Of a stretch of DNA of 64,000 nucleotides, positions 29,050 through 47,498 are shown one piece after another (position 1 is the first letter of the stretch; every line of letters starts with the position of its first letter). Source of the stretch: a virus. Location: positions 3,140 through 67,139 of the IMG/VR virus record IMGVR_UViG_3300031964_000019. One strand, written 5' to 3'. The position numbers were made by a program, and so were the translations under genes. Under the pieces are notes generated by a model. The model was not told the origin of the DNA. It ran no database searches and worked only from the letters and a program-made list of their open reading frames with translations.

Positions 29050-29764
29050 CCGGGCCGAGCGCGACTACGCGAAGCAACTTAAGCTTCTGTCGCGCCAAGT
29101 CGGCGGACTGATCGAATCGTATGCGTCTGGTTTGCACGGACTGCCGACGTTGACGCAGTTGTTGACAGCCTACGCGGAAGGACTGGTCCCGTGGGCCAAG
29201 CGCGTCGCCAGTCGGATGCTGGGCGAGGTGGACTTACGCGACCGTGACGCCTGGCGCTCGCTCGGCAACGCCATCTCAGCCCAGTTGCACCAGGACATCC
29301 GCAACGCCCCGGTGGGCGTGCGCATGAGCGAATTGCTCGGCCTGCAGGTCACGCTCATCACCTCCATTCCGCTCGAGGCGGCGCAGCGCGTACAGGAGCT
29401 CGCCGTCAAGGCGCGCATCGAGGGCGGTCGGGCGCGAGAGATTGCGCAGGAGATTGCGCGGTCGGGTGAGGTCGCGGAGTCGCGGGCGGTGCTCATTGCA
29501 CGCACCGAAACCTCGCGGGCCGCCAGTGTATTGCTTCAGGCACGGGCCGAGTCCATCGGCAGCGTGGCCTACCTATGGCGAACTTCCATGGACGGCTCGG
29601 TCCGTGACTCGCACCGAAAGATGGAAGGCAAGCTGGTTCATTGGGACGCGCCGCCCACGCTCGATAATCTGACGGGTCACGCGGGCGCATTGCCTAACTG
29701 CAGATGTTGGCCCGAGCCCGTCATCTCCGACCCCTACAAACCAGAAAGGCGCAGCCGCTCATGA
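28988..29764 (+). CDS. Head morphogenesis protein (SPP1 gp7/Mu F-like)
   Basis: IARTETSRA...YLWRTSMDGSVRDSH...GALPNCRC. Confidence 0.9.
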   Translation: MARQTQDDRPKNPVRGASRTSRAERDYAKQLKLLSRQVGGLIESYASGLHGLPTLTQLLTAYAEGLVPWAKRVASRMLGEVDLRDRDAWRSLGNAISAQLHQDIRNAPVGVRMSELLGLQVTLITSIPLEAAQRVQELAVKARIEGGRAREIAQEIARSGEVAESRAVLIARTETSRAASVLLQARAESIGSVAYLWRTSMDGSVRDSHRKMEGKLVHWDAPPTLDNLTGHAGALPNCRCWPEPVISDPYKPERRSRS

Positions 29765-30102
29765 CATCTCGACTTATCGTAGTGGGCGCAGCGGTGGCCA
29801 TGCTCTACGGCTGCGCGTCTGTGCCCGACACCGAAGTCATCGTAAAGCCGGAGTCATCGCGCCCGCTGTCGGCTGTGGCCGTCACCCAATGCGGACTGGC
29901 CGTGGCGCTGTTCGTCCAACTGGATGAGTCGCACATGTTGCGCGCCGACCCGCGGCAGTCCGATCTCTTCACGGCCGTCGACGGCCAACAGCGACAGAGC
30001 ACCGCGCCACCGATGGCGTGGGACAAGGCGTATCAGCTCGCCGGCTCCGCAGTTCTGTCCTCTCACGTCATTCTTCCCTGTACCGACAAACCTTCGATTT
30101 GA
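29761..30102 (+). CDS. Predicted lipoprotein
   Basis: MTSRLIVVGAAVAMLYG-C, lipobox-like (Tyr atypical); coupled to the gp7 stop. Confidence 0.55.
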   Translation: MTSRLIVVGAAVAMLYGCASVPDTEVIVKPESSRPLSAVAVTQCGLAVALFVQLDESHMLRADPRQSDLFTAVDGQQRQSTAPPMAWDKAYQLAGSAVLSSHVILPCTDKPSI

Positions 30103-30177
30103 TTGCTGAGCGGGATACCCGCCGGCAGCGTTAAAAATAACGCGACCTCTTTCCTCTCCACTTCCGGAGAAACCAAT

Positions 30178-30585
30178 ATGTTCTGGAGGAAGAAAAAGTC
30201 CTCCAAGGCGAAGGCGGCTAAAGCTGTCGCGTCGTCTTTGGAGACACGCTCCGATTTCTTGCCGATCGCGCCGCTCGCCGCCATCAATGACGTTGTGTTG
30301 TCCCGCCCCGTCTCGCGCGAACGCGCTGGCGGCATCGGCATGCAGGGCTATGCACCGAAGCTGGCCATCAGCAAGAACCGCCGCTACTGCGAGTACTGTG
30401 CCGAGCGCGTCGTTTCGGACAAGCGCCATGTGTGTTGGGGCAATGCCGAACACCATATGCACACGCTGACCGCCGAGGAGCGTGTCCGCATCATGGCTCA
30501 GCTTGCCGCAAAGCCGAAGAAGGCGACGAGAGCGCAGTTGAGGAAGCTCTACGCGTCCGACAGCGGTCCGCCGGCGGAGTATTAG
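30178..30585 (+). CDS. Hypothetical basic protein with a CxxC-x9-HxC motif
   Basis: SD GGAG; CEYCAERVVSDKRHVC. Confidence 0.65.
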   Translation: MFWRKKKSSKAKAAKAVASSLETRSDFLPIAPLAAINDVVLSRPVSRERAGGIGMQGYAPKLAISKNRRYCEYCAERVVSDKRHVCWGNAEHHMHTLTAEERVRIMAQLAAKPKKATRAQLRKLYASDSGPPAEY

Positions 30586-30588
30586 CAT

Positions 30589-30906
30589 ATGAACGACGCT
30601 GTGCCGGTATCGATCCCGATTATCTCGACCGCCGTCGGTCAGTGCACCGGCTGCGGCAGTCTGCTGTTTGCGAACGTCTTCCACATCTGTGCCGCCAACA
30701 TGCACCTGCACGAGGGCGCGATTGCACAGGAGGTGTTGAAGCAACTCCTGGTGACGAGCTACGTCGCCGCGCCTCCAGCCCCTACGACGACGGGGATCGT
30801 GACGGAGCCGCCCGCGCTGAAACAAACAGTCTCGCGAACTCACTGTGAGGTGTGTGAGCAGAGACTGGACCCGACGGCCATGCACCTCTGTGCAGGCAAT
30901 AAATAA
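30589..30906 (+). CDS. Small protein with two CxxC-x9-HxC motifs
   Basis: CTGCGSLLFANVFHIC and CEVCEQRLDPTAMHLC. Confidence 0.65.
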   Translation: MNDAVPVSIPIISTAVGQCTGCGSLLFANVFHICAANMHLHEGAIAQEVLKQLLVTSYVAAPPAPTTTGIVTEPPALKQTVSRTHCEVCEQRLDPTAMHLCAGNK

Positions 30907-30942
30907 AACGACGATTTAACTCCTCTTCCGGAGACAACAGAC

Positions 30943-32607
30943 ATGACCCATAACGTCGACACGGCGTTTGATCGAACGTTCTCAGATCCCCCTTCGGTCA
31001 CGGTGGCCGAGAATCGGACGCACTGTGAAGCCTGCGGCGCAACGCTCGACGCCTCCGTGATGCACAAATGCGCGGGGAATGCGGAGTGGAAGGTCGACAC
31101 TAATTGCGACATGTGCAACGGCACAAACCCGAATTGCGAGGCGTGCGGCGGCACGGGCGACCTACTACAAGAGGCCGCCGATGATGACAGCCCGATACTG
31201 ACCGAGCAGCAGAAATACGAAGCGATGTGGTCTCACGACCAGTACCGCGGCGTCGCCCCCGGCGAGCAGATCGCCCCCGAATTCCTCAGCGTCGCCCGCC
31301 CGCGCAACGGCGCAACGATCATCGACTTCGGCGCCGGCACCGGTCGTGGCTCGCGTGCGATTGCCATTCTCGCCAACCTCCATGGCCTCGATGTCACCAT
31401 CGAGATGCTCGACTTCGCGACCAACGCGCTCGACGACGATGTGGCCGAGCTGTGCAAGCAGGACGGCACGACCAAGCTTCGATTCACGCAGCACGACCTG
31501 ACGAAGGCCGCGCCCGTGACCGCGCCGTATGGCTTCTGTACAGACGTGCTCGAGCACATTCCCCCTGAACAGGTCGACACGGTGCTCCGGAACATTCTGC
31601 AGGCCGCACAGCACGTCTTCTTCCAGATCAGTTGCGTCGACGACTCGTGCGGGGTGTTGATCGGTCATCCGCTCCACCTGTCCGTGCACGACGGCGCCTG
31701 GTGGAAGAAGAAGTTAGAGGACCTTGGCTGCACGATTCATTTCTGGCGCGACGATGAACACTCGTGCGTGGCCTACGTCACGGCCTGGTCTGACGGTCAG
31801 GATGTCGTTGATGTCGGCGTCCTCAACATCGAGGAAGAGGCGATTCGCGCCAACGTGCGCACGAATGTCAAAGGCGGTTGGCATCAGGTCAAGCCACACG
31901 CGCCGCAGTCGACCGAGGTCATGATTGTCGGCGGTGGGCCGTCACTGGCCGGTCAGCTCGACACGATCCGCCGCATGCGGTTCGAAGGCGTCAAGCTCGT
32001 GACACTGAACGGCGCCTACAACTGGGCCATCGAGAATGGCCTCGAGGTTTCGGCGACCGTCGTCGTCGACGCGCGGCCGCACAATGCTCGTTTCACAAAG
32101 CCGGTGCAGCCGCAGACGATCTACCTGATGGGCTCGCAGGTTGATCCGTCGGTGCTCGAGGGATTGCCGAAGGAACGGACGCTGCTGTGGCACACGACGG
32201 CGGAAGCGATCCGCGACATCCTGGAAGAGGAATGCCCTGGCGAATGGTTCGGCGTGCCGGGCGGTTCAACGGTGTTGCTGCGGGCGATTCCGTTGCTGCG
32301 GATGCTGGGGTTCTCTAAGTTTCATTTGTTTGGGTGTGATTCGTGTGTGGTCGCGGATGCGCATCACGCCTACGCGCAGCCAGAGAACGACGGAACGCCG
32401 CTGTTCCCCGCAACGGTGGGCGGTAGGCTATTCCATTGCACCGCATGGCAAGTGGCGCAGGCGCAGGAGTTCATGAACTTGATCCGCATCATGGGCGACA
32501 TGTTCGAACTTGAGATGCACGGCGACGGACTGCTGTCATGGATCATCCAACACGGCGCCCAAGTCGATATCGATTTGGAAGAGGCGCGCGAGGTGTCGGA
32601 GAAATGA
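30943..32607 (+). CDS. Zn-finger / class I SAM methyltransferase / DUF115 (Maf/MptE-like) fusion
   Basis: IIDFGAGTG...MLDFA...FCTDVLEHIP (MTase); IVGGGPSL...TLNGA...VVVDAR...GGSTV...GFSKFHLFGCDS (DUF115-like Rossmann fold). Confidence 0.75.
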   Translation: MTHNVDTAFDRTFSDPPSVTVAENRTHCEACGATLDASVMHKCAGNAEWKVDTNCDMCNGTNPNCEACGGTGDLLQEAADDDSPILTEQQKYEAMWSHDQYRGVAPGEQIAPEFLSVARPRNGATIIDFGAGTGRGSRAIAILANLHGLDVTIEMLDFATNALDDDVAELCKQDGTTKLRFTQHDLTKAAPVTAPYGFCTDVLEHIPPEQVDTVLRNILQAAQHVFFQISCVDDSCGVLIGHPLHLSVHDGAWWKKKLEDLGCTIHFWRDDEHSCVAYVTAWSDGQDVVDVGVLNIEEEAIRANVRTNVKGGWHQVKPHAPQSTEVMIVGGGPSLAGQLDTIRRMRFEGVKLVTLNGAYNWAIENGLEVSATVVVDARPHNARFTKPVQPQTIYLMGSQVDPSVLEGLPKERTLLWHTTAEAIRDILEEECPGEWFGVPGGSTVLLRAIPLLRMLGFSKFHLFGCDSCVVADAHHAYAQPENDGTPLFPATVGGRLFHCTAWQVAQAQEFMNLIRIMGDMFELEMHGDGLLSWIIQHGAQVDIDLEEAREVSEK

Positions 32608-32816
32608 GCGAGGCTCAATACCGTTGTCTCGTCGCTTATATGATGTATTGGAGCGAGTGGGAGGGATGCTCACTCGACCGCGCAATCAAAGAAATTGGCA
32701 TAGTGATTTCGCGAGAGGACGTCATCCATGAACTCTTCCGCGCCGGCTATGACTACGACCCCCAACTGGACAGAATCCGCAACACGCAAGACGGTCCAGA
32801 AGACCCTAGTCGCTGA
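32604..32816 (+). CDS. Hypothetical protein
   Basis: ATGA-coupled 70-aa ORF. Confidence 0.5.
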   Translation: MSEAQYRCLVAYMMYWSEWEGCSLDRAIKEIGIVISREDVIHELFRAGYDYDPQLDRIRNTQDGPEDPSR

Positions 32817-32839: not shown

Positions 32840-33457
32840 ATGGCCGATACCCCGATCCAACCTGCTAGCGGCTCTCTCGCCGCCAACGGTATCGCGCTCG
32901 CGCTCGCCTTGAGTTTGGTGATCACGCCCGTCGCCGGGAGTCTGTCAGCGACCGCCACGGCGGGCGTGGTCTCCCAGGCGACCTCGACAGCCATCACGCC
33001 GACCGTCGGGTCAGTAACCCTGGCAGGGGTCGCGCCGGGGTTCTCGAAACCAACTGTCACTGCGATGGTGCCGACCGTCGGTGCCGTCGCGTTGAGTGGG
33101 GTGGCGTCTACGCTCGCCCAAGCCATCGGTGCAGTATCGAACTTCGACAGTGTCGATCAAGGCATTGTCACCTGGTCGGGCATCGCCAACGGGCAGGTTG
33201 GCACCCGCGTTCCGCCGGCTCCAGCCTATGGAAAGGTCAGCCTACAGGTCACCGGAACCTTTGGAAGCGGCGGCTCCATCAAGCTCGAAGGCAGTAACGA
33301 CGGCATCAACTGGGCCGCATTGAGCCCCGCCGCTCTCACCGGCGCGGGCTTCTTTGCTGCCCTTGGCGCGAACGAGAAGCCGCGGTATCTGCGGCCTAAC
33401 TGCACGGCGGGGGATTCGACCACGGCGCTGACGGTAGTCGCGTGGTTTTCGAGCTGA
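32840..33457 (+). CDS. Repeat-fibre protein 1: P-x-x-G-x-x-x-L-x-G-x-A-P repeats plus a C-terminal small beta-sandwich
   Basis: About five repeats, then VSLQVTGTFGSGGSIKLEGSNDGINW...PRYLRP. Confidence 0.65.
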   Translation: MADTPIQPASGSLAANGIALALALSLVITPVAGSLSATATAGVVSQATSTAITPTVGSVTLAGVAPGFSKPTVTAMVPTVGAVALSGVASTLAQAIGAVSNFDSVDQGIVTWSGIANGQVGTRVPPAPAYGKVSLQVTGTFGSGGSIKLEGSNDGINWAALSPAALTGAGFFAALGANEKPRYLRPNCTAGDSTTALTVVAWFSS

Positions 33458-33542: not shown

Positions 33543-34154
33543 ATGGCTATCGACGAGTCTAGCAAGCCGGGCCAGCTTGCGCTATTTGACCGGTCCGCCC
33601 CTTCTAAAGCGCCGCGGAAGCATTCCGACGAGACGCGCGCCAAAATGTCTGCGTCGCACACGGGCCGCCGCAATACGCCCGAACACAACGCCAATATCGC
33701 GAAAGCCCGAACGGGGACCACGCGTCTACCTTCGACCGTGGAGAAGATGCGCAAAGCCTCGACGGGCAAGAAGATGTCTCCGTGGTTCAAGGAGGAACTC
33801 CGCCGCAGATTCAGCGGACCAGAAAATCCGTCTTTCGGGAAGACGCCCGTCCATGCGGGTCCGCGCGGTCGATGGATTGAATATCGCGGAATCAACTTCA
33901 GGTCCAGTTATGAAGTGCGCTTCGCCAAGGCGTTAGATGCGCGCGGCTGGCCTTGGGAGTATGAGCCCGAGCGATTCAACTTAGGGCCGTGTACCTACCT
34001 ACCAGACTTCTTCGTGCCTAAGCTGGCGGCATATGTTGAGGTCAAGGGTTGGATGGATCCGCAAAGTAAGAGAAGAATTAATTTATTTCGGGAAGTGCAT
34101 CCGAAGTTGCCATTGATTGTGGCGACTGATCAGATCATCCGAATGTTCGAATAA
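33543..34154 (+). CDS. NUMOD3-containing PD-(D/E)XK endonuclease
   Basis: HSDETRAKMSASHTG repeats; FRSSYE...WEYEP...YLPDF...YVEVKG. Confidence 0.8.
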   Translation: MAIDESSKPGQLALFDRSAPSKAPRKHSDETRAKMSASHTGRRNTPEHNANIAKARTGTTRLPSTVEKMRKASTGKKMSPWFKEELRRRFSGPENPSFGKTPVHAGPRGRWIEYRGINFRSSYEVRFAKALDARGWPWEYEPERFNLGPCTYLPDFFVPKLAAYVEVKGWMDPQSKRRINLFREVHPKLPLIVATDQIIRMFE

Positions 34155-34177
34155 CTCGAACGCTCGGAATGTCGATA

Positions 34178-34206
34178 GAAGGGCCGCCTTAGAGCGGCCC
34201 TTTTTT
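34178..34206 (+). terminator. Intrinsic terminator
   Basis: GGGCCGC-CTTAGA-GCGGCCC-TTTTTT. Confidence 0.85.
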
Positions 34207-34261
34207 ATTCCCCCGGCGCTCAAGCGCAATTCCACATCATCCACTAGTTGGAGAGTTCGTC

Positions 34262-34867
34262 ATGTCTGAAATGAAGTCGGCGTCACGCCGTATCTATTCG
34301 AAGGGCGTCTGGCAGATGACGCCGACCGGCTACGAGTTCCTGCCCGAAGAGTCGGAGTATTTCGACTATTCTGGCCCCGTAGCTGAGGCCGCCGCGGGCG
34401 CGTGGAAGATATACACCAGGGCCAAAAGAACCATCGGGAGTGGCTCGGGGACGATCACGTTAGGTGCGGGCGTTTTCAAACTCGCACTCTGCCGCACGAG
34501 CGCCTCCGCAACGATCCTGAAGATCAGCAACGGTGGCATCTCCACCTGGGCCTCTGTTGGAAGCGAGATTTCGGCCACGGGCGGCTACGCGGCGAACGGT
34601 CGCAACCTCCCGCCTGCCACCGGCAAGTGGACGGTGGGGGCATCCACAAAACAAATGAAGTTCAGTTATACCACCGCCGGTCTCGTGTTCACGGCCAACG
34701 GTGCGAACCTGAACAACATCCGCTACGCGGTGATTCGCAACTCGACGGGCGCTGGCGCGGGCAAGGTGATTTGCTACTGCACGCTGTCGACGGCGGCGTT
34801 CACGATCACATCCCCCAACACCTTGACGATCAGCCCAGCCGCAACTGGGGTCTTCACGATGGCCTAG
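34262..34867 (+). CDS. Virion-associated beta-rich protein (possible fibre base) with an N-terminal leader-like extension
   Basis: AAGAWKIY...FKLAL...EISATGGY.ANG...RYAVI...ICY..L pattern, as I recall from uncharacterised phage fibre-module proteins. Confidence 0.55.
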   Translation: MSEMKSASRRIYSKGVWQMTPTGYEFLPEESEYFDYSGPVAEAAAGAWKIYTRAKRTIGSGSGTITLGAGVFKLALCRTSASATILKISNGGISTWASVGSEISATGGYAANGRNLPPATGKWTVGASTKQMKFSYTTAGLVFTANGANLNNIRYAVIRNSTGAGAGKVICYCTLSTAAFTITSPNTLTISPAATGVFTMA

Positions 34868-34906: not shown

Positions 34907-34928
34907 CCGGCCTTGTGCCGGTTTTTTT
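34907..34928 (+). terminator. Intrinsic terminator-like hairpin
   Basis: CCGGC-CTTGT-GCCGG-T7; near-identical to the one at 43057. Confidence 0.7.
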
Positions 34929-34953
34929 ATGTCTGCGCGTCGGGCTGGGAGAG

Positions 34954-37900
34954 ATGACAAACATCATTTTCAGCCCGACGCTGCAGGCACCGATAGTCTT
35001 ATCGAATCCCACAGGCTCGCTAGCCCTAGCCAGCGATCCCAGCGCCAGCATCCACCAGGCGAACCCCATCCCTAACCAGGGCGCGGTGGCGTTGGTCGGC
35101 GCCGCAGTGCGTCTCTCGCTCGCCATCGCCACCGTGAGTGGTGCTGCGTCGGTTTCAGGCGTGACCCCCGGCGTCATCCGGGGCACCGTCACGCATCCGG
35201 CAGTCGTCACCGGTGCACTGGCCGCCAGCGGTGGTGCGCCCATTGTCGCGACCTCGATCAGCGCGCCACAACTGACCTACCCGCGCGTCATGCTCATTGG
35301 CGACGGCGGTGATCAGAGCTACGGCTGTAATGCCGCCAACAGTTTCACACCCTGGCTGACGGCAGCCGCGGGCAACACCTCGCAGACCTTTATCCAACAG
35401 GTCGGCGCCTGGGATGTGTGGATCGGGTCCGGGGTCAATGAGACCGGCCCTACGACCGACTGGACCGACAGCGCCGCGCGCGACCGCGACAACCTCGCAC
35501 GGGCGTTGCTGAAGCAGTCCACGACCTACACGGTCAAACTGAACAACTCGCGACCGACGCTGTACTTCCCCTACCACATCATGGGTCAGGGCGAGACGGC
35601 GAGCGGCGGGGGCGGCTACCAGCAGTACATCACCCAGGTCGTCGACATGGACGGCTGGCTGTTCTCGTTGGCGGGCGGCGCCGGCACGATCACCCCGGCT
35701 TCCGACACCGGCAACCTGATCAATTACTCGGCGGCGTACCAGGCTGTCATCGGTAACGCACAGCCGGGCCAGAGCATCGTCGGCTCGAACTACGGCACGA
35801 CTAGCACCGGCAGTCCCACGGGGGCCCAGGGCATCGCGCGTACGAGCGGCAACTATGCCGCCATCAAACTCCTGATGCGCGGCTACACCGGGGACTCGCG
35901 CTTCAGCTTCACGCTCCAGATGGGCTCGGTGAACTGCGCGGGCGTGTTCCTCGACGACGCCTTCTGCGCACTCGACGGCAACGGCGCGGTCGCCAACTCC
36001 TCACTGGACGGCGTGACGATTGCGCCGGGCAGCCAGCAGGGCGGCGGCTATCCGGGTCTCGACACCGTGCAGGTCGTGATGGCGCATGGCAACCACAACT
36101 TCTTCGACCAGATGCAGATCATGGTCACGACGTTGGGGACCGGCAACTTCTACAACTTCGCAAACTTCGGTCAGTACGCCAACAACTATCAGTTCGGCAC
36201 CGCGCCGCTGACGGCCGGCTGGTCCAATCTGAATGGCGGCTTGATCGAAGCAGCCATCGGGGATGGCGCAGCCTCCTGGGAGTATTTCCAGACGGCGGGC
36301 GTGAATCCGTCGGGCTGGCCTGCGGTCCGCACGAACTACTACCAGGGCATGGCGTTTTGCGTGGCTCCCGCCTGGTGGAATGCCGCGACTATGGGGACGT
36401 ACGAGCCGCTGGTGGGCTTAGGGACCATGTTGCCCGCCACCGATGGCAGTTCGACAGCGTCCTTCGCGGTTAACGGCACGCTCACCTCAGTGACAGCCGG
36501 CACGGCGCTCGAGTATCAACTCATGCGCTACGGCCTGTGCACTGCGCTACTCCACAACGGTTTGGCTGCTTTCGGCGTCAGTGGCTACAACTACGCGCTG
36601 ACCCGCTGGTACGACGAATTCGGTGACGACTCGCTCACGCAGGTCAACGTCAAGCGCGGCTACCTCGGCGTCCCGACGTCCAACCCGCCCACGGCCGCCA
36701 CCTGGGCTCAGGGCCCGCTAGGCGTGTGGTCACGTACGTGGACCAACGGACTGTCGATCGTCAATCCGCGCGGCAACGGTTCGCAGACCGTGGCGCTCAG
36801 CGGAACGTATCAGAAACTGCAGGGTACTCAGCAGTCCTCGATCAACAATGGCGCCTACGTCACCAGCGTTACGCTCGGTGACGGGGACGGGATCATTGTG
36901 TTGGGTCCGAAGACGGCCGCGACGCTTGCGATCACGACCACCAGTTTGCCTGCGGCGACAGTAGGAGCCGCCTACAGCGCCACGATGGCCGCGACAGGCG
37001 GATTCCCTCCGTATGCATGGTCGGCCACCATCACGCCTAACGCCGGCTCGCAGTTCTCGATGTCGACCGGAGGGGTACTGAGCGGCACGCCTGGCACGGC
37101 GGAGAATGAATCCTGCGTCGCCAAAGTCACGGATGCCGCGAACAACTCCGCCACGGTCACCCTGGGTTTTTCGGTAGCTACCGCGAGTTCGTTCGCGCCG
37201 AATCGGCCGGCAGGGCTCACCACTCTGTTCGATCGCACGTTCGCGCCCGCGGACCTATTGTCCGGTGGCGCCCAGGATCAGTATGGGCTGCTGTGGTTTG
37301 TCTCCTCGTCCGGCAACCAAGCTAAGACGCCTATCATTGCGACCCCTGCGAGTTTGAGTTCCACCATCGGGGAAACGATCAACGCCCCGCCTGACGGAAA
37401 CCCAACGGCCCTAGCCGTCGTATACCCGGCGAGTTACCCCATCGGTAATACGCCTTTCCAGCTCAACTGGAAGAACAATAACAGCCTGACCTACAAACAG
37501 ATGTATGTCTGCATGTGGGTATGTATGCCGAAGGGCTTCAGCTCCAACAGCAACAACATAAAACTGATGGGCATTTCGCAGAACGGTGGTGCGAATCACA
37601 TTGCGATGCTGTCGTCCAACGGCTCCGGCACCGTATCCTCATCCGGCAGCGGCAAAGACTATCGCGGTCCATGGCTCAGCCTTCAGGGAACCGGCTCCGG
37701 GGACAATTACGGCGGCGAAGGCAGCGTCGGGGGAGCCGTCACTCAGCTATCGTCGACCGCATTCAACCCCACCGGGAGCAACGCAGTCGGTTGGTGGACG
37801 GCGATGTACAACGGCTCGACCGCCTATGCACTCGCCAACAAGTACAACGGCTGGCACCTGTGCGAGTGGCTGTTCACGCTTGAAACCGCAGGGGGCGCCG

Positions 37901-38089: not shown

Positions 38090-38851
38090 GTGACAACGAA
38101 GACAGACAGTTTCCCGACGGTGCAGAATCCATTGTCGGGGCACTGGGCAACGACCTACGGCGGCTTGCAATGTACCGCCTCCGGCATCGTGAAAGGCACC
38201 AGCCCGACGCCTCAGGACAACCTGTCGTCGTGGTCAACTTCTGACTATACGTTCCTGAACGATCAGACGTCGCAGATTACTTTCAGCAACATCGGAGATG
38301 ACGACTGGCCGGGCGCGACTGTCCGAATCGCTGGGACTACGACGTCGTCAACCGGTTACGTGGCCTATGCCAGGCTGGAGTCTACCGGGATCTTTCTTTA
38401 CAAGATCGCAACCAGTGGCACGATTGGCGCTGGCTCCGCGAATGAAATCGGCAGCGCAACGGGACTCACCCTGACCGGCTCCCACACGATGCAGTTGGCC
38501 GTTGCCGGGACGAATCTGATCGTATATCTAGACGGCTCATCGATTATCACGGTCTCAGACTCGGCTTTCACAGCCGGACAGCCCGGTATCGCGTACGAGT
38601 TCGGCAACAACAATTCGACCCAGATCAACAGCTTCACTGCTACGGATGCCGGCGGTGGATCCAACACAGGCATCACGCCGGCCGTGGGCGCGGTAACGAC
38701 CGCGGGTAATACGCCGACGGTAACGCCCGCTAGCAGCACCGTGATTTCCCCGCTCGTGGCGCGCAAGTCCGGGTTGCTCATGCCGAGCCGCCGTTTGCTT
38801 ATTCCGACGACGAAAAAGATTTTCCTGCCGCCGGTTCGCAAGGCTGCGTAA
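38090..38851 (+). CDS. Repeat-fibre protein 3: ConA/LamG-like jelly roll plus short repeat tail
   Basis: HTMQLAVAGTNLIVYLDG...VSDSAFTAGQPGI, then ITPAVGAVTTAGNTP. Confidence 0.6.
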   Translation: MTTKTDSFPTVQNPLSGHWATTYGGLQCTASGIVKGTSPTPQDNLSSWSTSDYTFLNDQTSQITFSNIGDDDWPGATVRIAGTTTSSTGYVAYARLESTGIFLYKIATSGTIGAGSANEIGSATGLTLTGSHTMQLAVAGTNLIVYLDGSSIITVSDSAFTAGQPGIAYEFGNNNSTQINSFTATDAGGGSNTGITPAVGAVTTAGNTPTVTPASSTVISPLVARKSGLLMPSRRLLIPTTKKIFLPPVRKAA

Positions 38852-38857
38852 ATCGCG

Positions 38858-40768
38858 ATGGCCAATACGACCATTACTCCCGGCGTCGGCAATCTAAGGC
38901 TGACCACCTCGACGGTGGTGATCGCGCCTTTGATCGCCGCACTCGCACTGTTGGGCACGGCACCGACGCTAAGCCAGAACATTGTACCGGGTGTCGCCTC
39001 TGTCGCAGTCGTCTCGCCGGGCGCTGCAGTGATGGCGCTGGGGTTCCCCGGGAGCGCGGGCGCTGTTTCTATCGCCGGCGTCACCGTCGCGCTTTCATTT
39101 GGAAGCGCCGCGAGCCCTTCGACGGGCGCTGTCAGCGTCGCCGGCACCTCCGCGGCCCTCGCGGTCGGAATCGTGACTCCGGCGGCCGGTGCGGCAACAT
39201 TCGCGGGCCAAGCGCCGCTGGTTAACATCCCGAATCAGACGGCAACTCCCGCTGCCGGGCTTCTCGGCCTTCGTGGGTTCGAAAGCCAGATCAACACCGG
39301 CAGTTCGGCGCCGGCAGCGTCTGCGGTCCTGACGTTGGCGGGCGCCGCGCCGCTGCTCGGATTGCAGATTGCGTTGAGTCCGGCCGGGACTGCGGCACTG
39401 GGATTGGCGGGCGCTGGTTCGACGCTCAACTATGGCGTCGCGCCGATTGTGGGCAACCTGCTGATGACGACGCGGGCTTCCCCCCTCGCGCCCTCGACGG
39501 GTGTGATCACGCTGACGGGCTACGCGCCGACCTTGGCAGGCTCGCTCGGCCTCGTGCCGGGCACGGCGGTCCTGACGTTGGGCGGTACCGTGGTCAGCCT
39601 GGCGCTTGCAGTGCCGTCGCCCCCGTGCGCCGCGCTCGTTCTCGGCGGCACGGTTTCCGGTCTGGTGCTCACGCACATTCAGGTTCCGACCGTGGGCGCG
39701 CTGGCGCTCGCTGGCAGTGCGCCAGTGGTTACACAGAGCGTATCGGCGACGGTTCCGAATGGCATCCTCGTCGTGGGGGGTCTGGGCCCCGGCCTAGGCG
39801 TCAACCTGCTCACGCAAGCGGCCGGCTTGCAACTCAACGGCGTCGCAGCGCTGGCGCTCAGCGGAACGGTCTCCGTCCCCGTCGCAGGCAGTCTCGCCGC
39901 GGCCGGTACCGTCCCCACCCTGACGCCTGGCGGCTCAGTCGCCCCGTCAGCTGGCGCTATCACCTTGGTGGGCATCGCGCCGAATGTCGCGGAAGGCCTC
40001 GTGCCTTCGGTGGGCACGATCTCACTCAGTGGCAACGCGCCGGTTCAGGGTCTGCGGATTGCGCCGCCTGCTGCGGCGCTCGCGGTTCAAGGCTCGGTCC
40101 CCACTGTCAACGGCCAGGTGGTCGAAACAGTTCCGGCTGGCGCACTGACATTGATGACGGGCGCCCCGACGATGGCGCTGGGAATCACCCCGGCCGTGGC
40201 AACACTCACGTATGGCGCGACCGCGCCGACGTTTGGACTCGCGATCGTGCCGCCGGCCGCCGCCGTGAATCTCGGTGGCAACGCGCCGGTCCTGGCAGTC
40301 TCGGGCGTCCCGCTGACCCAGACGGGCAATGTGGCGCTGTCCGGTGCCGCGCCGGTCCTGGGGCTTCAGATTGCGCCCAGCGCGGGCGTACTCGCGATAC
40401 CGGGAATCCAACCGATCGCGAGCTCGCGCTTCTCGATCGCGCCGCTCACGGGCGCCGTCGGGTTGGCAAGCGATCCGGCCGTCATCACCAACGCCGGTGT
40501 TCCGGTGCCGGTGACGGGTGTGATCGCCTTCAACTCGGATGCGCCGGAAATCATCCGCTCTGGTTTCGCCGCACCGCAGACCGGCGCCATCACAACGGGC
40601 GGCAACGTCCCACTGGTCTACCAGACCACCAACGGGTTCGTCGTTCCGGACACGGCGACCATCACGCTCGACGGTCAGCCGGCGGTCGTGCCGCTCTATC
40701 AGCCCGACCCGTATCACACCGTCGACTCGCCGGGCCCGGATCGCTACACCGTCAATTCGCCAGGGTAG
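38858..40768 (+). CDS. Repeat-fibre protein 4 (636 aa, roughly 30 repeats)
   Basis: Almost entirely (I/V)xPxxGxLxLxGxAP units, with very few charged residues. Confidence 0.75.
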   Translation: MANTTITPGVGNLRLTTSTVVIAPLIAALALLGTAPTLSQNIVPGVASVAVVSPGAAVMALGFPGSAGAVSIAGVTVALSFGSAASPSTGAVSVAGTSAALAVGIVTPAAGAATFAGQAPLVNIPNQTATPAAGLLGLRGFESQINTGSSAPAASAVLTLAGAAPLLGLQIALSPAGTAALGLAGAGSTLNYGVAPIVGNLLMTTRASPLAPSTGVITLTGYAPTLAGSLGLVPGTAVLTLGGTVVSLALAVPSPPCAALVLGGTVSGLVLTHIQVPTVGALALAGSAPVVTQSVSATVPNGILVVGGLGPGLGVNLLTQAAGLQLNGVAALALSGTVSVPVAGSLAAAGTVPTLTPGGSVAPSAGAITLVGIAPNVAEGLVPSVGTISLSGNAPVQGLRIAPPAAALAVQGSVPTVNGQVVETVPAGALTLMTGAPTMALGITPAVATLTYGATAPTFGLAIVPPAAAVNLGGNAPVLAVSGVPLTQTGNVALSGAAPVLGLQIAPSAGVLAIPGIQPIASSRFSIAPLTGAVGLASDPAVITNAGVPVPVTGVIAFNSDAPEIIRSGFAAPQTGAITTGGNVPLVYQTTNGFVVPDTATITLDGQPAVVPLYQPDPYHTVDSPGPDRYTVNSPG

Positions 40769-40772: not shown

Positions 40773-41093
40773 ATGCTCACGTTCCCCACCATCGACCCCG
40801 ACGCGCAGCGGGTGCTGACCTTCAATTGTTCCAAGGATCTGGATGGCAACGAGGTGTTGGCCGGCGGCGCGGTGCTGAAAAGCATCGTGTGCACGGCCGG
40901 TACCGATGCGACGCCGCTGGGCATGCTGTTGGGCCTGGTGTCGTACGACAACACGGGGACGCAGATTCTGGTGCCGGTGGGCAATCTGAGCTCGCGCAAC
41001 GGCAATGACTACGTGTTGGAAGTGACCTCGCTCACGTCGATCCCGCCGAAGGAAATCGTCGTTCGCGCGCTGCTGCAAGTAAGGCCCGACTGA
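40773..41093 (+). CDS. Putative fibre adaptor/anchor protein
   Basis: FPTIDPDAQRVLTFN...L..NE.L...GTDATP..ML.G...Y.LEV pattern resembling phage fibre-adaptor proteins; follows fibre 4. Confidence 0.45.
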   Translation: MLTFPTIDPDAQRVLTFNCSKDLDGNEVLAGGAVLKSIVCTAGTDATPLGMLLGLVSYDNTGTQILVPVGNLSSRNGNDYVLEVTSLTSIPPKEIVVRALLQVRPD

Positions 41094-44228: not shown

Positions 44229-44284
44229 ACGGTCCCCGGTTCCGGGCCGGGGATTTCTCACTCACATAAAGAGGCTACAAGCCC

Positions 44285-44776
44285 ATGAGCAAGACCGTCA
44301 TTCTACTGCGACCTTTTACGTTCTCGTACCCCTCGACGGGCGGCGAAAACCACCGTCTCCCGCGTGAGCAGAAGTTCGCACCGCTGCGGGACAAGGAAAC
44401 CGGCGGCTGGCTTCCGACCGAGCAGGAGCTGCCCGACGAGGTCGCGGAGCATTCGTTCATCAGTGAGCACTTCGCGGACGGCTGCATCGAGCGGCCGGAA
44501 GTGACCAAGGCTCGCATCGAGGCGGCGCAGGCCAAAGTGACCAAGGAGAAGGAGGACAACGCGCGCGAGCTCAAGAAGGCGGAGGATGCCTTGAAGCGGG
44601 CCAGCGGCTCACATGCGGTCCACAAGATCACGGAGGCCAAGGTGGAGCAGCAACTCAACACGCCGGTCAACGAGATTGGCGCGAAGCAAGGCGCGGATAT
44701 CGACAAGCCGGTCGACGACAAGGATTTGCAAGCGGCGCTGAATACGCCGGTCAATAAGCTGGCCGGTAAGAAGTAA
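44285..44776 (+). CDS. Head-associated hypothetical protein
   Basis: Follows MCP; LLRPFTF...ELPDEVAEH.FI. Confidence 0.6.
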   Translation: MSKTVILLRPFTFSYPSTGGENHRLPREQKFAPLRDKETGGWLPTEQELPDEVAEHSFISEHFADGCIERPEVTKARIEAAQAKVTKEKEDNARELKKAEDALKRASGSHAVHKITEAKVEQQLNTPVNEIGAKQGADIDKPVDDKDLQAALNTPVNKLAGKK

Positions 44777-44779
44777 CCC

Positions 44780-45253
44780 GTGACGCCCACACTGTTTCGT
44801 CAGGTCTTTCGCGAATTCGCTGAACCTGACACGTCGCCCGATGACGCCATCAACTTCTTCATCGGGCTGGCGCAGAATTTTCTGAATGGCTCGACCTCCA
44901 GTGTGGGTCAGCGCTGGGACCCGACTTCGCTCGACTACGGCATCGGGCTGTTCACTGCGCACCATCTGGCGTTGAGTCAGCGGGCTGTGGCCACCGCGTC
45001 GGCTGGTGGCATTCCGGGCGATGTCAGAGGGCCTGCGACCGCGAAGTCGGTTGATAAAGTATCCCAGTCGTTCGATACGAAAAGCGTTACCTGGGAGAAC
45101 GAAGCGTTTTGGTCAATGACGACCTACGGAGTTAGGTTGATAGATTTGGCCAGAATGTTTGGCGCTGGCGGCGTCCAGTTGGGTGTCTGCGCCGGTGGCG
45201 AGCTGATCGGCGGCATCGGTCCTTATGGCTGGGGCCTGAATCTGGGCGGATGA
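44780..45253 (+). CDS. Head-tail adaptor (DUF4054)
   Basis: FRQVFREFA...LFTAHHLAL...KSVDKVSQSFD...TTYG. Confidence 0.88.
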   Translation: MTPTLFRQVFREFAEPDTSPDDAINFFIGLAQNFLNGSTSSVGQRWDPTSLDYGIGLFTAHHLALSQRAVATASAGGIPGDVRGPATAKSVDKVSQSFDTKSVTWENEAFWSMTTYGVRLIDLARMFGAGGVQLGVCAGGELIGGIGPYGWGLNLGG

Positions 45254-45256
45254 GTC

Positions 45257-45853
45257 ATGGCCTCCCGCGTCGTTATCACCGCCGATAAAGTCAACGCGGT
45301 GATCGGCTCCATTACTAAGTTGGTCGGCAAGGAGGTGCTGGTCGGCATCCCCGAAGCCAACGCCAGCCGACAAAACGATGACAGCAGCGGTCCGGTGAAT
45401 AATGCGATGATCGGCTATCTCATGGAGAACGGCAGCCCCGCGCGCAACGTTCCGGCGCGTCCGTGGCTGGTCCCGGGAGTACGAGACTCGACGAGCCAGT
45501 GGTCGCCCCATCTCAAAGGCGCTGCCAATGCGGCGTTGGATGGGAACACTCAGCGGAGTGATCAGGAGCTCGCGGCGTCCGGAGTGATCGCGGCGTCCGG
45601 CGTCAAACGCAAGATCAACAGCAACATTCCGCCGCCATTGAGCGCTGCGACGATCCGGGGGCGCAAGTACGGCCGTGACACGAAATCGCGTAGAGAGAAC
45701 GAGGACCGGTATTTGAACATGATCCGCAGCCCTGCTAAAGGCGGCGCTGGGATGTCGCCGGGAGATGCGCAGAGCGCGGCAGGGATTGTGGCCCTCGTGA
45801 ACACCGGAGAATTTCGCAACGCGGTGGACTCCGTCGTCCGCAAGAAGACGTGA
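45257..45853 (+). CDS. Neck/tail completion protein
   Basis: VLVGIPE...NNAMIGYLMENGS...NVPARPWL...PPLS.ATI...LVNTG. Confidence 0.8.
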   Translation: MASRVVITADKVNAVIGSITKLVGKEVLVGIPEANASRQNDDSSGPVNNAMIGYLMENGSPARNVPARPWLVPGVRDSTSQWSPHLKGAANAALDGNTQRSDQELAASGVIAASGVKRKINSNIPPPLSAATIRGRKYGRDTKSRRENEDRYLNMIRSPAKGGAGMSPGDAQSAAGIVALVNTGEFRNAVDSVVRKKT

Positions 45854-45856
45854 CCC

Positions 45857-46231
45857 GTGCCATTTCTTGACTGCTCAGACGTCCTGTTGGATCCGGACTT
45901 CTGTGACCCCACGCTCATCTGTCAACGTAACCCAGTCAGTGCAAATAACAACGGTCGTGGCGTATTCACAGGGACACAAACCCTTCCTTTCACCGGCGTC
46001 GTCACCTCCGACAAAGGTGAACTGCTCGCGCGCGGCATGGTCGGCGAGCACGCTACAGGTGCGATCTCCATCATCACACGCTTCACGCTGATCGATGCCG
46101 GCACCGGCATGACGGCTGACATCGTGCAGTGGAATGGCAAGCAGTACACGGTGACCAAGGTCAACGACTACTCGACCTACGGCATCGGCTTCATTGAGGC
46201 GATTGCCGAACTCATTCCCTTAGCCGGCTAG
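45857..46231 (+). CDS. Head-closure protein
   Basis: MPFLD.SDVLLDPDF...GVVTS...DIVQWNG..YTV...DYS.YG.GF. Confidence 0.75.
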   Translation: MPFLDCSDVLLDPDFCDPTLICQRNPVSANNNGRGVFTGTQTLPFTGVVTSDKGELLARGMVGEHATGAISIITRFTLIDAGTGMTADIVQWNGKQYTVTKVNDYSTYGIGFIEAIAELIPLAG

Positions 46232-46235
46232 GCCC

Positions 46236-47498
46236 GTGTCCAACACCACGATCACCCCTTCAGCCGGATTGGTTCGGCTGACGACGGACCTTGCGCCGTT
46301 GATCGTGGTTGGCAGCGTGACGCTATCCGGCGTGGCGCCCGCCATCATCCGCGGGACCGTGATCACCCCCAGTGTGGTCGCGGCGACATTGGCCGGTGTG
46401 GCGCCATCGGTTACGAAGCCGACCGTCACGGCCATCGCGCCGACGGCTGGATCCGTCTCGCTGAGTGGCGTCTCGCCCGCACTCCTGCTGACCAGCCTGA
46501 TCACGCCGTCAGTCGGCACCGTCACGCTGAGTTCGGCGGCCGGGGTGATGAGCCTGGGCGTGTCGCCGCTGGCAGGCGCGCTGACTGTTGCTGGTGTGGC
46601 CCCGACCGAGGCCCGCGGAACCGTTATCGCGCCGTCGGTGGGAGCGCTGGCGCTCGCTGCAGCCGCGCCGACTCTGATCATCGGCACTGTCATTGCTCCC
46701 GCCGTCGGGGCGGCGACGCTCACCGGCGCAGCGCCTGCCGAGGCGCGCGGCACGGTCATCGCGCCTGCTGTCGGGACCGTTTCGTTGGCGGGTATCGCCC
46801 CGACGATGGCGCTCGCCATGGCGCCGGGTGTCGGGACACTGGCATTGACGGGCTCGACGCCGTCGCTGTCGATGGGTGCTGGCAGTTACACCATCACGCC
46901 CAACACGGGCGCGCTTGCGCTGACTGGGTCTGCGGCAGCGATGGGACTCGGCATTGCGCCCCTCATCGGCACGGTTGCCTTTGCGGGCGTGGCGCCGACC
47001 CGGATTCAGGCGGCCGTCCTGTCGCCGACGGTGGGCTCTATATCGTTCGCGGGCGCTGCGCCGACAACTGGCCTAGCCATCGCCCCCGGTGTCGCGCAGA
47101 TCGCCCTCAGTGGCGTGTCTCCGGGGCTCGGGCGCGGGACCGTCATTGCTCCCAACGTCGGAGGAGTCAGCCTCTCGGGGACTGCCCCCGGCGTTGTTCA
47201 GGCCGATTTGATCGCTCCGTCGACCGGCTCGGTCGCCATTACCGGCGCGCCACCCACGCTGGCCGGTGCGATCACGTTGATCACGCCCGCGAGCGCAGCC
47301 TTAACGCTGGTGGGAACTGTCCCGAATGCGGCGGCGGTGGCGACAATACCGGCTGGCGCCGTTGCGTTGGGCTCGCTGGCGCCTGTGGTGCGAATCACCT
47401 ATGCCGCCGGGCCGCTCTATCTCTTGCCGGCACCGGCCTCGATCCCGATGCCATCGCCCGGTTACTACTACCTGCTGCCCGCAAAGGATGCCGCGTGA
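46236..47498 (+). CDS. Repeat-fibre protein 5 (420 aa, about 20 repeats) in the neck region
   Basis: GTVIAPxVGxxxLxGxAP units; N-terminus MSNTTITP.AG..RLTT matches fibre 4. Confidence 0.75.
   Translation: MSNTTITPSAGLVRLTTDLAPLIVVGSVTLSGVAPAIIRGTVITPSVVAATLAGVAPSVTKPTVTAIAPTAGSVSLSGVSPALLLTSLITPSVGTVTLSSAAGVMSLGVSPLAGALTVAGVAPTEARGTVIAPSVGALALAAAAPTLIIGTVIAPAVGAATLTGAAPAEARGTVIAPAVGTVSLAGIAPTMALAMAPGVGTLALTGSTPSLSMGAGSYTITPNTGALALTGSAAAMGLGIAPLIGTVAFAGVAPTRIQAAVLSPTVGSISFAGAAPTTGLAIAPGVAQIALSGVSPGLGRGTVIAPNVGGVSLSGTAPGVVQADLIAPSTGSVAITGAPPTLAGAITLITPASAALTLVGTVPNAAAVATIPAGAVALGSLAPVVRITYAAGPLYLLPAPASIPMPSPGYYYLLPAKDAA

Follow-up and report, generated by a model that had tools for sequence, protein, structure and literature searches.

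Gene context of the repeat proteins

What might a phage that already encodes a normal tail fibre build from five further proteins sharing a short, almost charge-free and hydrophobic repeat? The five genes (P0001 to P0005) lie in the window, that is, the whole 64,000-nt stretch of viral DNA analysed here, and are late genes read in one direction; their source is an uncultivated myovirus, complete at 69 kb, with an E217/XM1/Magia-type backbone (all genes described below are on the + strand). P0001 to P0004 are the four genes between a Mu-F-like gene and the DUF2213, cement and capsid genes, and P0005 is flanked by a neck gene and, downstream, by the gene for the neck terminator (PF23961; 47495..48082), whose start overlaps the P0005 stop by 4 nt. 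These positions agree with the first-pass annotation of the locus, which had placed four repeat genes in the head operon, the fifth among neck genes and a separate tail fibre gene at 57968. The nearest cultured backbone, that of Burkholderia phage Magia, is without both insertions. We consider it most likely that the inserted genes build additional fibres that bind sugars where head and tail meet, resembling the "beads on a rope" assemblies known from a few recent phage structures.

A homing endonuclease gene (NUMOD3 plus endonuclease I-like; 33543..34154) is inserted within the cassette and is no functional part of it. A related endonuclease is found in another locus (L040), between the genes for the enzyme and the candidate bead described below. 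We also noted a terminator-like hairpin at 34182-34205.

A 22-residue repeat in five paralogous proteins

The near-charge-free repeat reported earlier is real, is shared by all five genes as their open reading frames were given, and both of the paralogous strings quoted for it are present. Its dominant period is 22 residues (20 in places), the family consensus is x-V-I-T-P-S-V-G-A-L-T-L-A-G-I-A-P-T-V-V-x-G with P5, G8, G14 and P17 near-invariant, and Asp, Glu, Lys and Arg together make up 2.8% of P0004 and 3.3% of P0005. An HMM built from 23 units, taken from P0004 and P0005 only, finds 16 clear units and up to about 25 envelopes in P0004, 16-18 units in P0005, 3-4 in P0001, two weak ones in P0002 (residues 57-99) and one in P0003 (residues 193-212); the earlier figures of about 30 and 20 units for the two near-pure repeat proteins were thus a slight overcount. 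When 500 composition-preserving shuffles were scored against the real sequence, none equalled the real repeat score, the best shuffle reaching 3.9 bits versus 33.7 for the N-terminus of P0001, 7.9 versus 15.1 for the N-terminus of P0002 and 15.2 versus 19.6 for the C-terminus of P0003. P0002 is the weakest repeat case of the five.

Two of the proteins, P0004 (38858..40768; 636 aa) and P0005 (46236..47498; 420 aa), are almost pure repeat (nt 38918-40624 and 46293-47393, respectively), P0004 ending in a duplicated Y-x-T-V-x-S-P-G motif. Orthologues of P0004 occur in two related loci (L014 and L015), an orthologue of P0005 holds the equivalent place in a third (L007), and a complete relative (G002) has a 461-aa repeat ORF ~8 kb beyond its P0004-like gene. 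The remaining three combine few units with other domains. P0001 (32840..33457; 205 aa), which has homologues in L015 and L016, has its units at nt 32915-33106 and, in residues 93-205, a discoidin/CBM-like beta-sandwich that makes up its C-terminal part. In P0002 (34954..38088; 1044 aa, or 1057 aa in the public gene call, which starts at 34915) the repeats (nt 35122-35250) come first; then follow a conserved domain of ~550 aa without annotation, an Ig domain of He_PIG type and, at the C-terminus, a jelly-roll-like domain. P0003 (38090..38851; 253 aa) begins with a ConA/CBM66-like domain, continues with its single unit (nt 38666-38725) and ends in a basic tail; the same architecture with more units is seen in P0012 (Laminin_G_3) and P0032 (discoidin).

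The payloads proposed in the first-pass annotation fared unevenly. The sandwich of P0001 holds and the Ig domain of P0002 is supported via a homologue, but the CBM66 likeness of the P0003 N-terminus is weak (E 0.07), and the GHL15 and polysaccharide-lyase signals for P0002 are sub-threshold and come only from its homologue. That payloads are swappable is well illustrated by relatives, which carry LamG, discoidin, PhoD, a lipase-like protein or a GHL15-like domain. The payloads of P0001 and P0002 are C-terminal to the repeats, whereas most relatives show the opposite polarity.

A widespread cassette with a constant enzyme

The first gene of the conserved cassette (30943..32607) encodes a fusion enzyme that joins a Cys-rich extension at the N-terminus to a class I SAM methyltransferase domain (Methyltransf_25, E 1.4e-6) and an MptE/Maf-like domain (PF01973, E 7e-16); the profile of the C-terminal domain matches the solved Maf 5mu5 (E 1.4e-4). 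About 400 relatives of this enzyme were found in viral contigs. Among the 80 best of these loci, a homologue of the protein encoded at 34262 lies directly downstream of the enzyme in 76, and a repeat protein follows that homologue in 68, with gaps of ~10 nt; the misses fall at contig ends. The predicted co-occurrence of repeat, 34262-like and MTase-DUF115 genes is therefore strongly borne out. The cassette occurs within blocks of structural genes in phages whose backbones are unrelated (Phage_capsid_4 with SU10_adaptor, Head-tail_con with Terminase_2, and E217-like), and both the repeat consensus and the sequence of the 34262-like protein are conserved across backbones with unrelated capsid genes. 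The cassette was not found in 50,697 GenBank phage records and is almost absent from 185,579 prokaryote genomes. Overall, the enzyme, a small fibre-type protein and repeat proteins form a widespread, unannotated cassette.

A candidate fibre subunit and a possible adaptor

The small protein encoded at 34262..34867, a single-copy gene in this genome, had been proposed as a base; its matches suggest a fibre subunit ("bead") instead. Its first 43 residues form a lineage-specific extension, with the conserved core beginning near residue 44 (nt 34391). Identity to the proteins of 152-159 aa encoded behind the enzyme in related loci is 59-91%, and the family comprises at least 3,102 metagenomic clusters. 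The length of these proteins is comparable to that of known beads, 140-171 aa (PMC13730344), which we count in favour of the bead reading. The AF2 model (pLDDT 64.8) consists of an N-terminal helix and a sandwich, and its best small-protein VIA match is chain 8jou_a of GP4 (136 aa; Z 7.3, 116 residues aligned, rmsd 3.3), although Z values of 7-8 are also reached by unrelated models. Further VIA matches are a Bxb1 tail-tip chain (Z 6.1) and, fourth-best, an Sf14 neck chain (Z 5.8). Foldseek against the PDB gave no match, and the matches in BFVD (E 2e-4 to 1e-3) are structural, minor-tail and tail-collar fibre proteins of phages. All of the fold matches are thus to phage virion proteins, which fits the role in a virion appendage proposed at the outset. 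Comparisons of the bead-family profile with GP4 gp80 and with Gp77-like proteins were not significant.

The gene directly after P0004 (40773..41093; 106 aa) occupies the place of the Gp77-type fibre-tail adaptors of related loci and may encode a ring adaptor. The earlier assignment is not supported in the form given: it comes down to this position and one weak profile match to Gp77-like proteins (hhalign, E 0.027). In L014 and L015 the protein recurs directly behind the P0004 orthologue; its homology to adaptors is putative. The protein has no Pfam Gp77 match, and the Pfam Gp80 and Gp77 models match nothing in the source genome, even at E 10. In relatives the linkage is plain: L012 and L013 have a Pfam Gp77 gene (E 2.1e-10, above cut-off) immediately behind the repeat protein, L025 and L030 have phmmer relatives of that gene in this place, and the repeat protein P0025 has a Gp77-like domain fused at its C-terminus. 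A profile of these Gp77-like proteins matches GP4 chain 8jou_D (E 2.3e-5). Separate rope and collar proteins are the layout of GP4, and a rope fused N-terminal to the collar is that of Bas63 (PMC12609058).

Models for the assembly

We tentatively favour, at somewhat below an even chance, a rope-and-bead fibre system that is anchored at the neck and uses the repeats as docking sites. The insertions would form an accessory virion fibre module in an E217/XM1/Magia-type myovirus. Each 22-residue unit of a rope would present a hydrophobic strand (G-x-L-x-L-x-G-x-A-P) that completes the beta-sandwich of one docked copy of the 34262 protein, so that P0004 and P0005 would be long strings of up to about 25 and about 17 beads. 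P0005 would probably be anchored at the neck beside the terminator ring, a possible anchor for it; P0001, P0002 and P0003, with few units, would tie carbohydrate-binding or -cleaving domains into the assembly; the 40773 protein could be the ring adaptor; and the fusion enzyme, as an obligate partner, may modify rope or beads. We base this reading on the conservation of the cassette (76/80 and 68/80 loci) and its location in structural blocks of unrelated backbones, on the resemblance of the 34262 model to fibre, neck and tail-tip chains, on the Gp77 genes and domain that adjoin or are fused to repeat proteins in relatives, on a gene order of bead, repeat protein and adaptor that matches gp80, gp79/gp78 and gp77 of GP4, and on a near charge-free, hydrophobic repeat present in five proteins for one bead gene. 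Against it we count the Pfam and bead-family profile results, the VIA scores within the range of unrelated models, the null Foldseek search, the payload polarity of P0001 and P0002, the fact that the GP4 rope gene is itself only a candidate (gp78/gp79), and the AF2 model of P0005 alone, a right-handed beta-helix that needs no beads.

This last model points to the main alternative, less probable and frankly doubtful, in which the repeats fold by themselves into a single-chain right-handed parallel beta-helix, each coil taking up 22 residues. As rigid rods of ~8-13 nm, P0004 and P0005 would then resemble tailspike or adhesin stalks, in a virion appendage with neither rope nor beads; the 34262 and 40773 proteins would be small adaptors to the virion, and the short-repeat proteins lectins or enzymes on a short stalk. 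The AF2 prediction for P0005 has regular strands (pLDDT 74.5, pTM 0.73) and VIA matches to Vag8 (Z 25.1, 360 residues aligned), HMW1 (22.6), EtpA (21.9) and a phage tailspike depolymerase (21.8), the ESM Atlas model of P0005 resembles Fil_haemagg beta-helices (TM 0.73/0.88), and Gly and Pro residues that are near-invariant at their positions fit the turns of a solenoid. However, predictors often yield solenoids from any short strand repeat, ESMFold2 is unsure of a typical family member (pLDDT 48) as is the Atlas of P0005 (pLDDT 0.57), and none of the Pfam beta-helix families gives a match. With polar and charged residues so scarce, such a helix would be of unusual hydrophobicity, and the one unit of P0003 or two of P0002 cannot make a helix alone. 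Such a fold also leaves unexplained why the repeat consensus and a 34262-like protein are conserved together across unrelated phages, and why the order of Gp80-like, repeat and Gp77-like genes recurs.

A third reading, which we hold to be just as doubtful and which could be combined with either structural model, takes the repeat proteins to be chiefly substrates: the Maf-like domain would O-glycosylate Ser/Thr of the repeat and the methyltransferase would modify the sugar or the protein, and the resulting coat of glycan on the fibre would shield the virion, or else mimic or bind surfaces of the host. Maf proteins attach pseudaminic or legionaminic acid to Ser/Thr residues of flagellin, and both the PF01973 assignment and the likeness to 5mu5 are in line with such an activity. 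The enzyme is moreover the most constant neighbour of the repeat proteins, and across the family the Thr at position 4 of the unit shows 81% conservation, with Thr/Ser prevailing at positions 11 and 18. Of the units in the window, however, 57% have Ala at position 4; the PF01973 family also includes pterin kinases (weak match to 8sd5, E 0.02); and no NeuB-type synthase or CMP-sugar synthetase was found in the phage, so that any donor must be host-derived.

It is very improbable that the cassette is instead a non-virion late module altering the host surface for superinfection exclusion or release (for example by flagellin or pilin modification or polysaccharide degradation) with repeat proteins secreted or cell-associated: Maf-family enzymes normally act on host flagellin, P0002 homologues have enzyme-like domains and the placement in the virion is deduced, but the cassette always lies within structural operons, tightly coupled to structural genes, is nearly missing from prokaryote genomes, has Gp77 adaptor domains adjacent or fused in relatives and a 34262 fold seen in virion proteins, and by eye the N-termini of P0001 to P0005 show no obvious signal peptide.

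Comparison with known systems

Beta-helix stalks (Vag8, HMW1, EtpA, tailspikes) resemble the P0005 AF2 model (Z 21-25 over 260-360 residues) and have similar coil lengths of 20-22 residues; here, however, no sequence family matches, charged residues are much scarcer, neither a secretion domain nor a catalytic groove is recognised, and the fold of P0005 is a predicted one. The enzyme shares the PF01973 domain and its resemblance to 5mu5 with Maf flagellin glycosyltransferases, but is fused to a SAM methyltransferase and, in the source lineage, a Cys-rich N-terminus, and its length and the aligned range (232-425 of 5mu5) suggest that it is without the Maf flagellin-binding flanks. A glycosyltransferase gene in a structural operon also marks the glycosylated capsid and tail-tube proteins of some mycobacteriophages, although the enzymes there belong to other families.

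Long ropes with many sites exist: the chain-like fibres of the Pseudomonas podophage A1002 and the Vibrio phage VP1 have eleven dimers of 147-171-aa subunits, docked in tandem on an extended rope by beta-sheet augmentation (PMC13730344). Compared by description, the rope of A1002 belongs to the nozzle protein as one of its domains and winds around the tail, and two bead types are present versus one bead gene here. In the collar-whiskers of Bas63 and Sf14, whisker dimers are threaded as beads on an N-terminal rope extension of an Ig-like neck collar (PMC12609058, PMC11821841). The Sf14 neck-chain match of the 34262 model, the topology of P0025 (rope N-terminal to a collar-type domain) and the encoding of P0005 among neck genes recall this arrangement. 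By contrast, the Bas63 rope is part of the collar protein and holds only two dimers, neither lectin or enzyme payloads nor an associated enzyme gene are described there, and no collar homologue is recognisable by sequence here.

Fiber I of the Ralstonia podophage GP4 (PDB 8jou; PF23140, PF23148) is built from dimers of gp80 carried by a rope with a gene of its own, and docks on the fibre-tail adaptor gp77. Shared features are a small subunit of ~150 aa with an N-terminal helix and sandwich, the order of small subunit, Gly/Ala-rich periodic protein and adaptor, true Gp77-family genes or domains beside repeat proteins in related loci, and a role accessory to ordinary tail fibres. GP4 gp79 shows a 20-residue periodicity (z 6.4); by sequence, the PDB contains neither of the two candidate ropes, gp78 and gp79. 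The first-pass annotation did not recognise a characterised structure in this locus; GP4 Fiber I and the Bas63/Sf14 whiskers are analogues that qualify this view. The window holds no sequence member of PF23140 or PF23148. Compared with GP4, the locus belongs to a myovirus, its repeat motif is distinct and keeps a much more regular period (22 aa), its units number up to about 25 versus five dimers, and several ropes are encoded per genome, some with lectin or enzyme domains, together with a constant MTase+Maf-like partner that goes unmentioned in the available parts of the GP4 structure literature.

Five proteins share a 22-residue repeat

The five repeat-bearing reading frames claimed by the first-pass annotation, P0001 (32840-33457), P0002 (34954-38088), P0003 (38090-38851), P0004 (38858-40768) and P0005 (46236-47498), were translated again and agree with its description. 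A repeat HMM trained on 23 units, all from P0004 and P0005 and with P0001, P0002 and P0003 left out, recovered 16-18 units in P0005, 16 clear units (up to ~25 envelopes) in P0004, three to four in P0001, two weak ones in P0002 and one close to the C-terminus of P0003. The real scores of the repeat-bearing parts of P0001, P0002 and P0003 were matched by none of 500 shuffles. The period is 22 residues, Pro5, Gly8, Gly14 and Pro17 hardly vary among 293 units drawn from many loci, and charged residues make up ~3% of P0004 and P0005. No family in Pfam or PHROGs corresponds to the repeat, and P0004 and P0005 have no match in either collection, including the Fil_haemagg, Beta_helix and pectate-lyase-type repeats. 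PDB sequence searches with the family of the small protein encoded at 34262, with P0002 and with P0005 gave nothing useful (P0005 had no match at all), and of the 100 ESM Atlas clusters nearest to the repeat, 97 are viral.

Some details of the gene models are worth recording. In the public annotation P0002 has 1057 aa and starts 13 codons 5' of the start in the first-pass annotation (34915-34953). P0003 and P0004 lie in the same frame, with one stop and two codons between them (38849-38860); a single readthrough gene was considered and rejected, and we treat P0004 as a separate gene because its N-terminal motif is shared with P0005 and with the repeat protein of another locus (L016). The C-terminal tail of P0003 is basic, as is that of a similarly built protein in L020. 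Short motifs recur at the termini: Y-x-T-V-x-S-P-G twice at the end of P0004 (40630-40768), L-Y-L-L-P-A followed by Y-Y-Y-L-L-P-A at the end of P0005 (47400-47498) and, in a common freshwater clade (L035-L093), a conserved N-terminal G-W-G-R-G-T-W-S-S-G-P-W-G and one to three copies of a C-terminal N-P-N-W-x-x-I-N-T-x-Q-T-P-x-W. These motifs may be anchoring peptides.

The repeat is combined with diverse payload domains. Residues 93-205 of P0001 resemble small viral sandwiches and discoidin/CBM domains, and P0003 shows a weak likeness to CBM66 and matches a PHROG "tail protein" family. Residues ~100-650 of P0002 share 54-63% identity with many phage-contig proteins that have other termini. In the P0002 homologue P0064, He_PIG scores above threshold and GHL15 and Polysacc_lyase below it, and the Ig region of P0002 is 44% identical to this He_PIG region. 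In relatives of P0005, a Laminin_G_3, discoidin or PhoD domain precedes 8-13 units.

A three-gene cassette in uncultivated phages

Among the 47 metagenomic relatives of P0005, two unrelated contigs have the same gene order: an MTase+MptE-like fusion, a 155-aa protein with 74% identity to the 34262 protein, and then the P0005 relative. The corresponding fusion enzyme of the window (30943-32607) has ~400 relatives in IMG/VR. Absence of co-occurrence had been named beforehand as refuting the proposed system; among the best 80 of these ~400 loci, a 34262-like gene lies immediately 3' of the enzyme in 76 and is followed by a protein detected by the repeat HMM in 68, and the loci lacking the full cassette are contig ends. 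In its minimal form the cassette consists of an enzyme of ~475 aa, a small protein of 152 aa and a repeat protein of ~240-270 aa with 4-12 units, separated by gaps of ~10 nt. When clustered at 90% identity, the small-protein family forms no fewer than 3,102 clusters.

The cassette occurs in differing genomic surroundings. The portal and Mu-F backbone of the window is common to only five of the 80 loci, and in the long loci examined the cassette has Phage_capsid_4 and SU10_adaptor genes as neighbours or precedes a Terminase_2/Head-tail_con block. It was not found in 50,697 GenBank phage records: the region gave no megablast match, tblastn gave none for P0005, for the 34262 protein, for the 106-aa protein encoded at 40773-41093 (a candidate adaptor) or for a Gp77-like protein from L012, and the sole match to the enzyme was one partial methyltransferase. 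It is also almost absent from 185,579 prokaryote genomes, in which one full-length enzyme relative was found on a 7-kb MAG contig, and is thus not a prophage trait. A complete relative (G002) has a P0001-like gene, another payload gene that contains some units, a P0004-like gene followed by a 40773-like gene and, ~8 kb beyond this pair, a P0005-like gene; L007 has a P0005 orthologue in exactly the same neck slot.

The weakest P0005 relative, P0046, was dropped as a true relative, as a weak actinophage match whose minor-tail context looks compositional. On its contigs (L008/L009) it lies among Sipho_Gp37, Phage_gene29 and Gly_rich_2 genes, the last carrying a beta-lactamase domain, and neither the enzyme nor the bead gene is found around it. 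P0046 is probably a compositional match or a member of a distinct family.

Taken together, we consider these genes probable components of a mobile accessory virion-appendage cassette, expanded in the window to five repeat proteins.

Placement among the head and neck genes

The parent IMG/VR virus record is 69,383 bp long with a completeness rating of 100%, and the window, which covers its bases 3140-67139, has a GC content of ~61%. A large terminase (25533), a Phage_portal_3 portal (27523) and a Mu-F-like protein (28943) precede the cassette. A DUF2213 protein (41095), a cement protein of the XM1-gp53/E217-gp24 type (42525), the major capsid protein (43080), a DUF4054 protein (44780) and a Neck1-type connector (45257) come after it, followed beyond P0005 by the neck terminator (47495), a DUF3383 sheath (48147; then chaperone, tape measure and baseplate genes) and a tail fibre (57968). 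By capsid, the nearest cultured phages are Bordetella phage vB_BaM-IFTN9 (63%) and Burkholderia phage Magia (60%). The Mu-F-like gene of Magia adjoins a gene in the position of the DUF2213 gene, and its neck genes adjoin the sheath; therefore, the window has two insertions relative to Magia, one of ~11.3 kb that separates the Mu-F-like gene from the DUF2213 gene and the other the 1.26-kb P0005 gene within the neck block.

The enzyme partner

The enzyme combines a class I methyltransferase domain with an MptE/Maf-like domain (PF01973; residues 303-469, E 7e-16, with 58.9 bits where the curated threshold is 34.6). Among solved structures, a profile of its C-terminal part hits the Maf protein 5mu5 (E 1.4e-4) and, less strongly, a kinase of the MptE type. 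Genes for NeuB (PF03102) or for a CMP-sugar synthetase (CTP_transf_3, PF02348) were not found in the phage genome, and a CMP-nonulosonic acid donor could possibly come from the host. The enzyme begins with an extension of ~85 residues containing several CxxC pairs (30943-31200) that most homologues lack, and small Cys-motif proteins encoded at 30103 and 30589 have relatives in the L014-L018 lineage only.

We infer a role for the enzyme in the appendage solely from its constancy as a partner. A reading that we estimate to be unlikely is that the fusion is a dedicated maturation enzyme of a beaded neck fibre, adding both sugars and methyl groups to its rope or bead proteins, with the 22-residue repeat as both docking and modification site. 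As far as the literature we found extends, virion protein glycosylation would then be described for the first time outside actinobacteriophages, as a mobile cassette of three genes that hundreds of uncultivated phages from water and soil carry.

The 34262 protein as a candidate bead

The gene for the small protein (34262-34867) has its own ribosome-binding site and encodes a 43-residue N-terminal extension not present in relatives. A homing endonuclease of the NUMOD3/endonuclease-I-like type (33543-34154) is inserted between P0001 and this gene. In the stretch behind it (34155-34390), up to the 34262 core, come a terminator-like hairpin (34182-34205) and the new ribosome-binding site. In an unrelated locus, a related endonuclease (L040:6275-6922; E 4.9e-37) separates the enzyme gene from the bead gene, which suggests homing into this cassette.

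An AF2 model of the 34262 protein from a 50-sequence alignment (pLDDT 64.8) predicts a helix (residues 52-58) and a beta-sandwich (residues 64-200). Foldseek against the PDB found nothing significant for this model or for that of P0005. In an exhaustive VIA search, phage virion chains ranked first for the 34262 model, namely a KP1 baseplate chain (Z 8.2), chain 8jou_a of Fiber I of the Ralstonia podophage GP4 (Z 7.3, with 116 of its 136 residues aligned), a tail-tip chain of Bxb1 (Z 6.1) and a neck chain of Sf14 (Z 5.8). The Z values of the GP4 and Sf14 matches are within the background range. BFVD matches were phage structural, minor-tail and tail-collar fibre proteins with modest scores (E 2e-4 to 1e-3). 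Searches with the Gp80 family of GP4 (PF23140) found no match in the 34262 protein (E up to 5) or anywhere in the genome (E up to 10), and the hhalign comparison of the 34262 family profile with GP4 gp80 was not significant (E 0.36). The likeness of the 34262 protein to gp80 would thus be a resemblance of predicted fold only.

A rope with beads or a beta-helical rod

In GP4, five gp80 dimers sit on a separately encoded rope that is docked on an adaptor. In the myophage Bas63, the collar is extended at its N-terminus by a rope on which whisker dimers sit as "beads on a string", each with an incomplete sandwich that the rope completes; in A1002, a 300-Å rope carries eleven dimers of subunits of 147-171 aa (PMC12609058, PMC13730344, PMC11821841). 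If the appendage works in this way, the bead would combine a helix at its N-terminus with an incomplete beta-sandwich of ~140-170 aa, and the repeat units would be periodic docking sites, one per bead, on an extended chain. We tentatively favour this mechanism, at slightly less than an even chance, because the repeat region is found where the two known layouts have their rope (apart from the collar, or fused to it on the N-terminal side), because one conserved small protein goes with many different repeat proteins, and because the repeat consensus and the small protein are conserved together across unrelated backbones. Moreover, a repeat of one or two units fits a docking tag and not a helix, and the units would be too hydrophobic for a free surface. 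A complex prediction for the bead and repeat protein of one typical cassette (L038) scored 0.03, which counts neither for nor against binding.

Alternatively, the repeat could form an autonomous right-handed parallel beta-helix rod, which we regard as somewhat unlikely. Such a helix is what AF2 predicts for P0005 (40-sequence alignment, pLDDT 74.5), and this model superposes on Vag8, HMW1, EtpA and tailspikes with Z values of 21-25, as a prediction only. Proteins of this class are built of stacked three-strand coils with ~18-25 residues per turn, a likeness that P0005 has in prediction only. By sequence, P0004 and P0005 match no described beta-helix family in Pfam or PHROGs, and the PDB search with P0005 gave no match. 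A triple beta-spiral or trimeric shaft was also considered; no evidence was found for either, and the predictions favour a single chain.

Rope-and-bead fibres have been described since 2023 from only a handful of phage structures, with ropes that lack a sequence family. Under the rope-and-bead mechanism, the cassette would supply a large, regular and readily recognised rope repeat (detected at 68 of the 80 loci), a sequence family for the bead and a conserved enzyme partner that is unreported for the solved examples. It would let thousands of "hypothetical" late phage genes be annotated, would explain how virions carry lectin and glycan-cleaving domains away from the tail fibres, and would raise the question of post-translational modification of such fibres. 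If the beta-helix prediction is right, the result would be more ordinary, namely a new sequence family of accessory-spike stalk proteins.

Comparison with GP4 Fiber I

In two loci (L012 and L013), a gene of the Pfam family of the GP4 fibre-tail adaptor (Gp77, PF23148) directly follows the repeat protein (E 2.1e-10), and in L025 and L030 that place is taken by phmmer relatives of this gene. P0025, a protein of at least nine units, carries a Gp77-like domain as a C-terminal fusion, and a profile of the Gp77-like proteins matches GP4 chain 8jou_D. PF23148 has no match in the window; the 40773 family is weakly similar to the Gp77-like proteins (hhalign E 0.027), and the bead family profile has no significant similarity to them. 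The Gp77 link and the slot of P0005, whose stop overlaps the start of the terminator gene, suggest attachment to the neck, while attachment to the head may be an alternative.

In GP4, the genes are ordered gp80 (PF23140, 140 aa), gp79 (325 aa), gp78 (568 aa) and gp77 (PF23148, 93 aa). Neither gp79 nor gp78 could be assigned to a PDB chain by sequence, and the rope gene is not named in the GP4 literature we found. The gp79 protein (L110 27948-28925, minus strand) is Gly/Ala-rich, has about ten 20-residue periods (z 6.4) and matches no Pfam family; lying between the Fiber I gp80 and the adaptor gp77, it is a candidate for the GP4 rope.

Since the proteins of the window fall outside PF23140 and PF23148 by sequence, we do not file them as members of these families, and their relation to a GP4-type fibre is one of "works like" and not of "is". 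They share their gene arrangement with Fiber I: the window has the 34262 gene, repeat proteins and the 40773 gene, L012, L025 and L030 have a bead, a repeat protein and a Gp77-like gene, and the order of a bead-like protein, a repeat protein and an adaptor (in the window a candidate one) within the late structural genes is common to the window and GP4.
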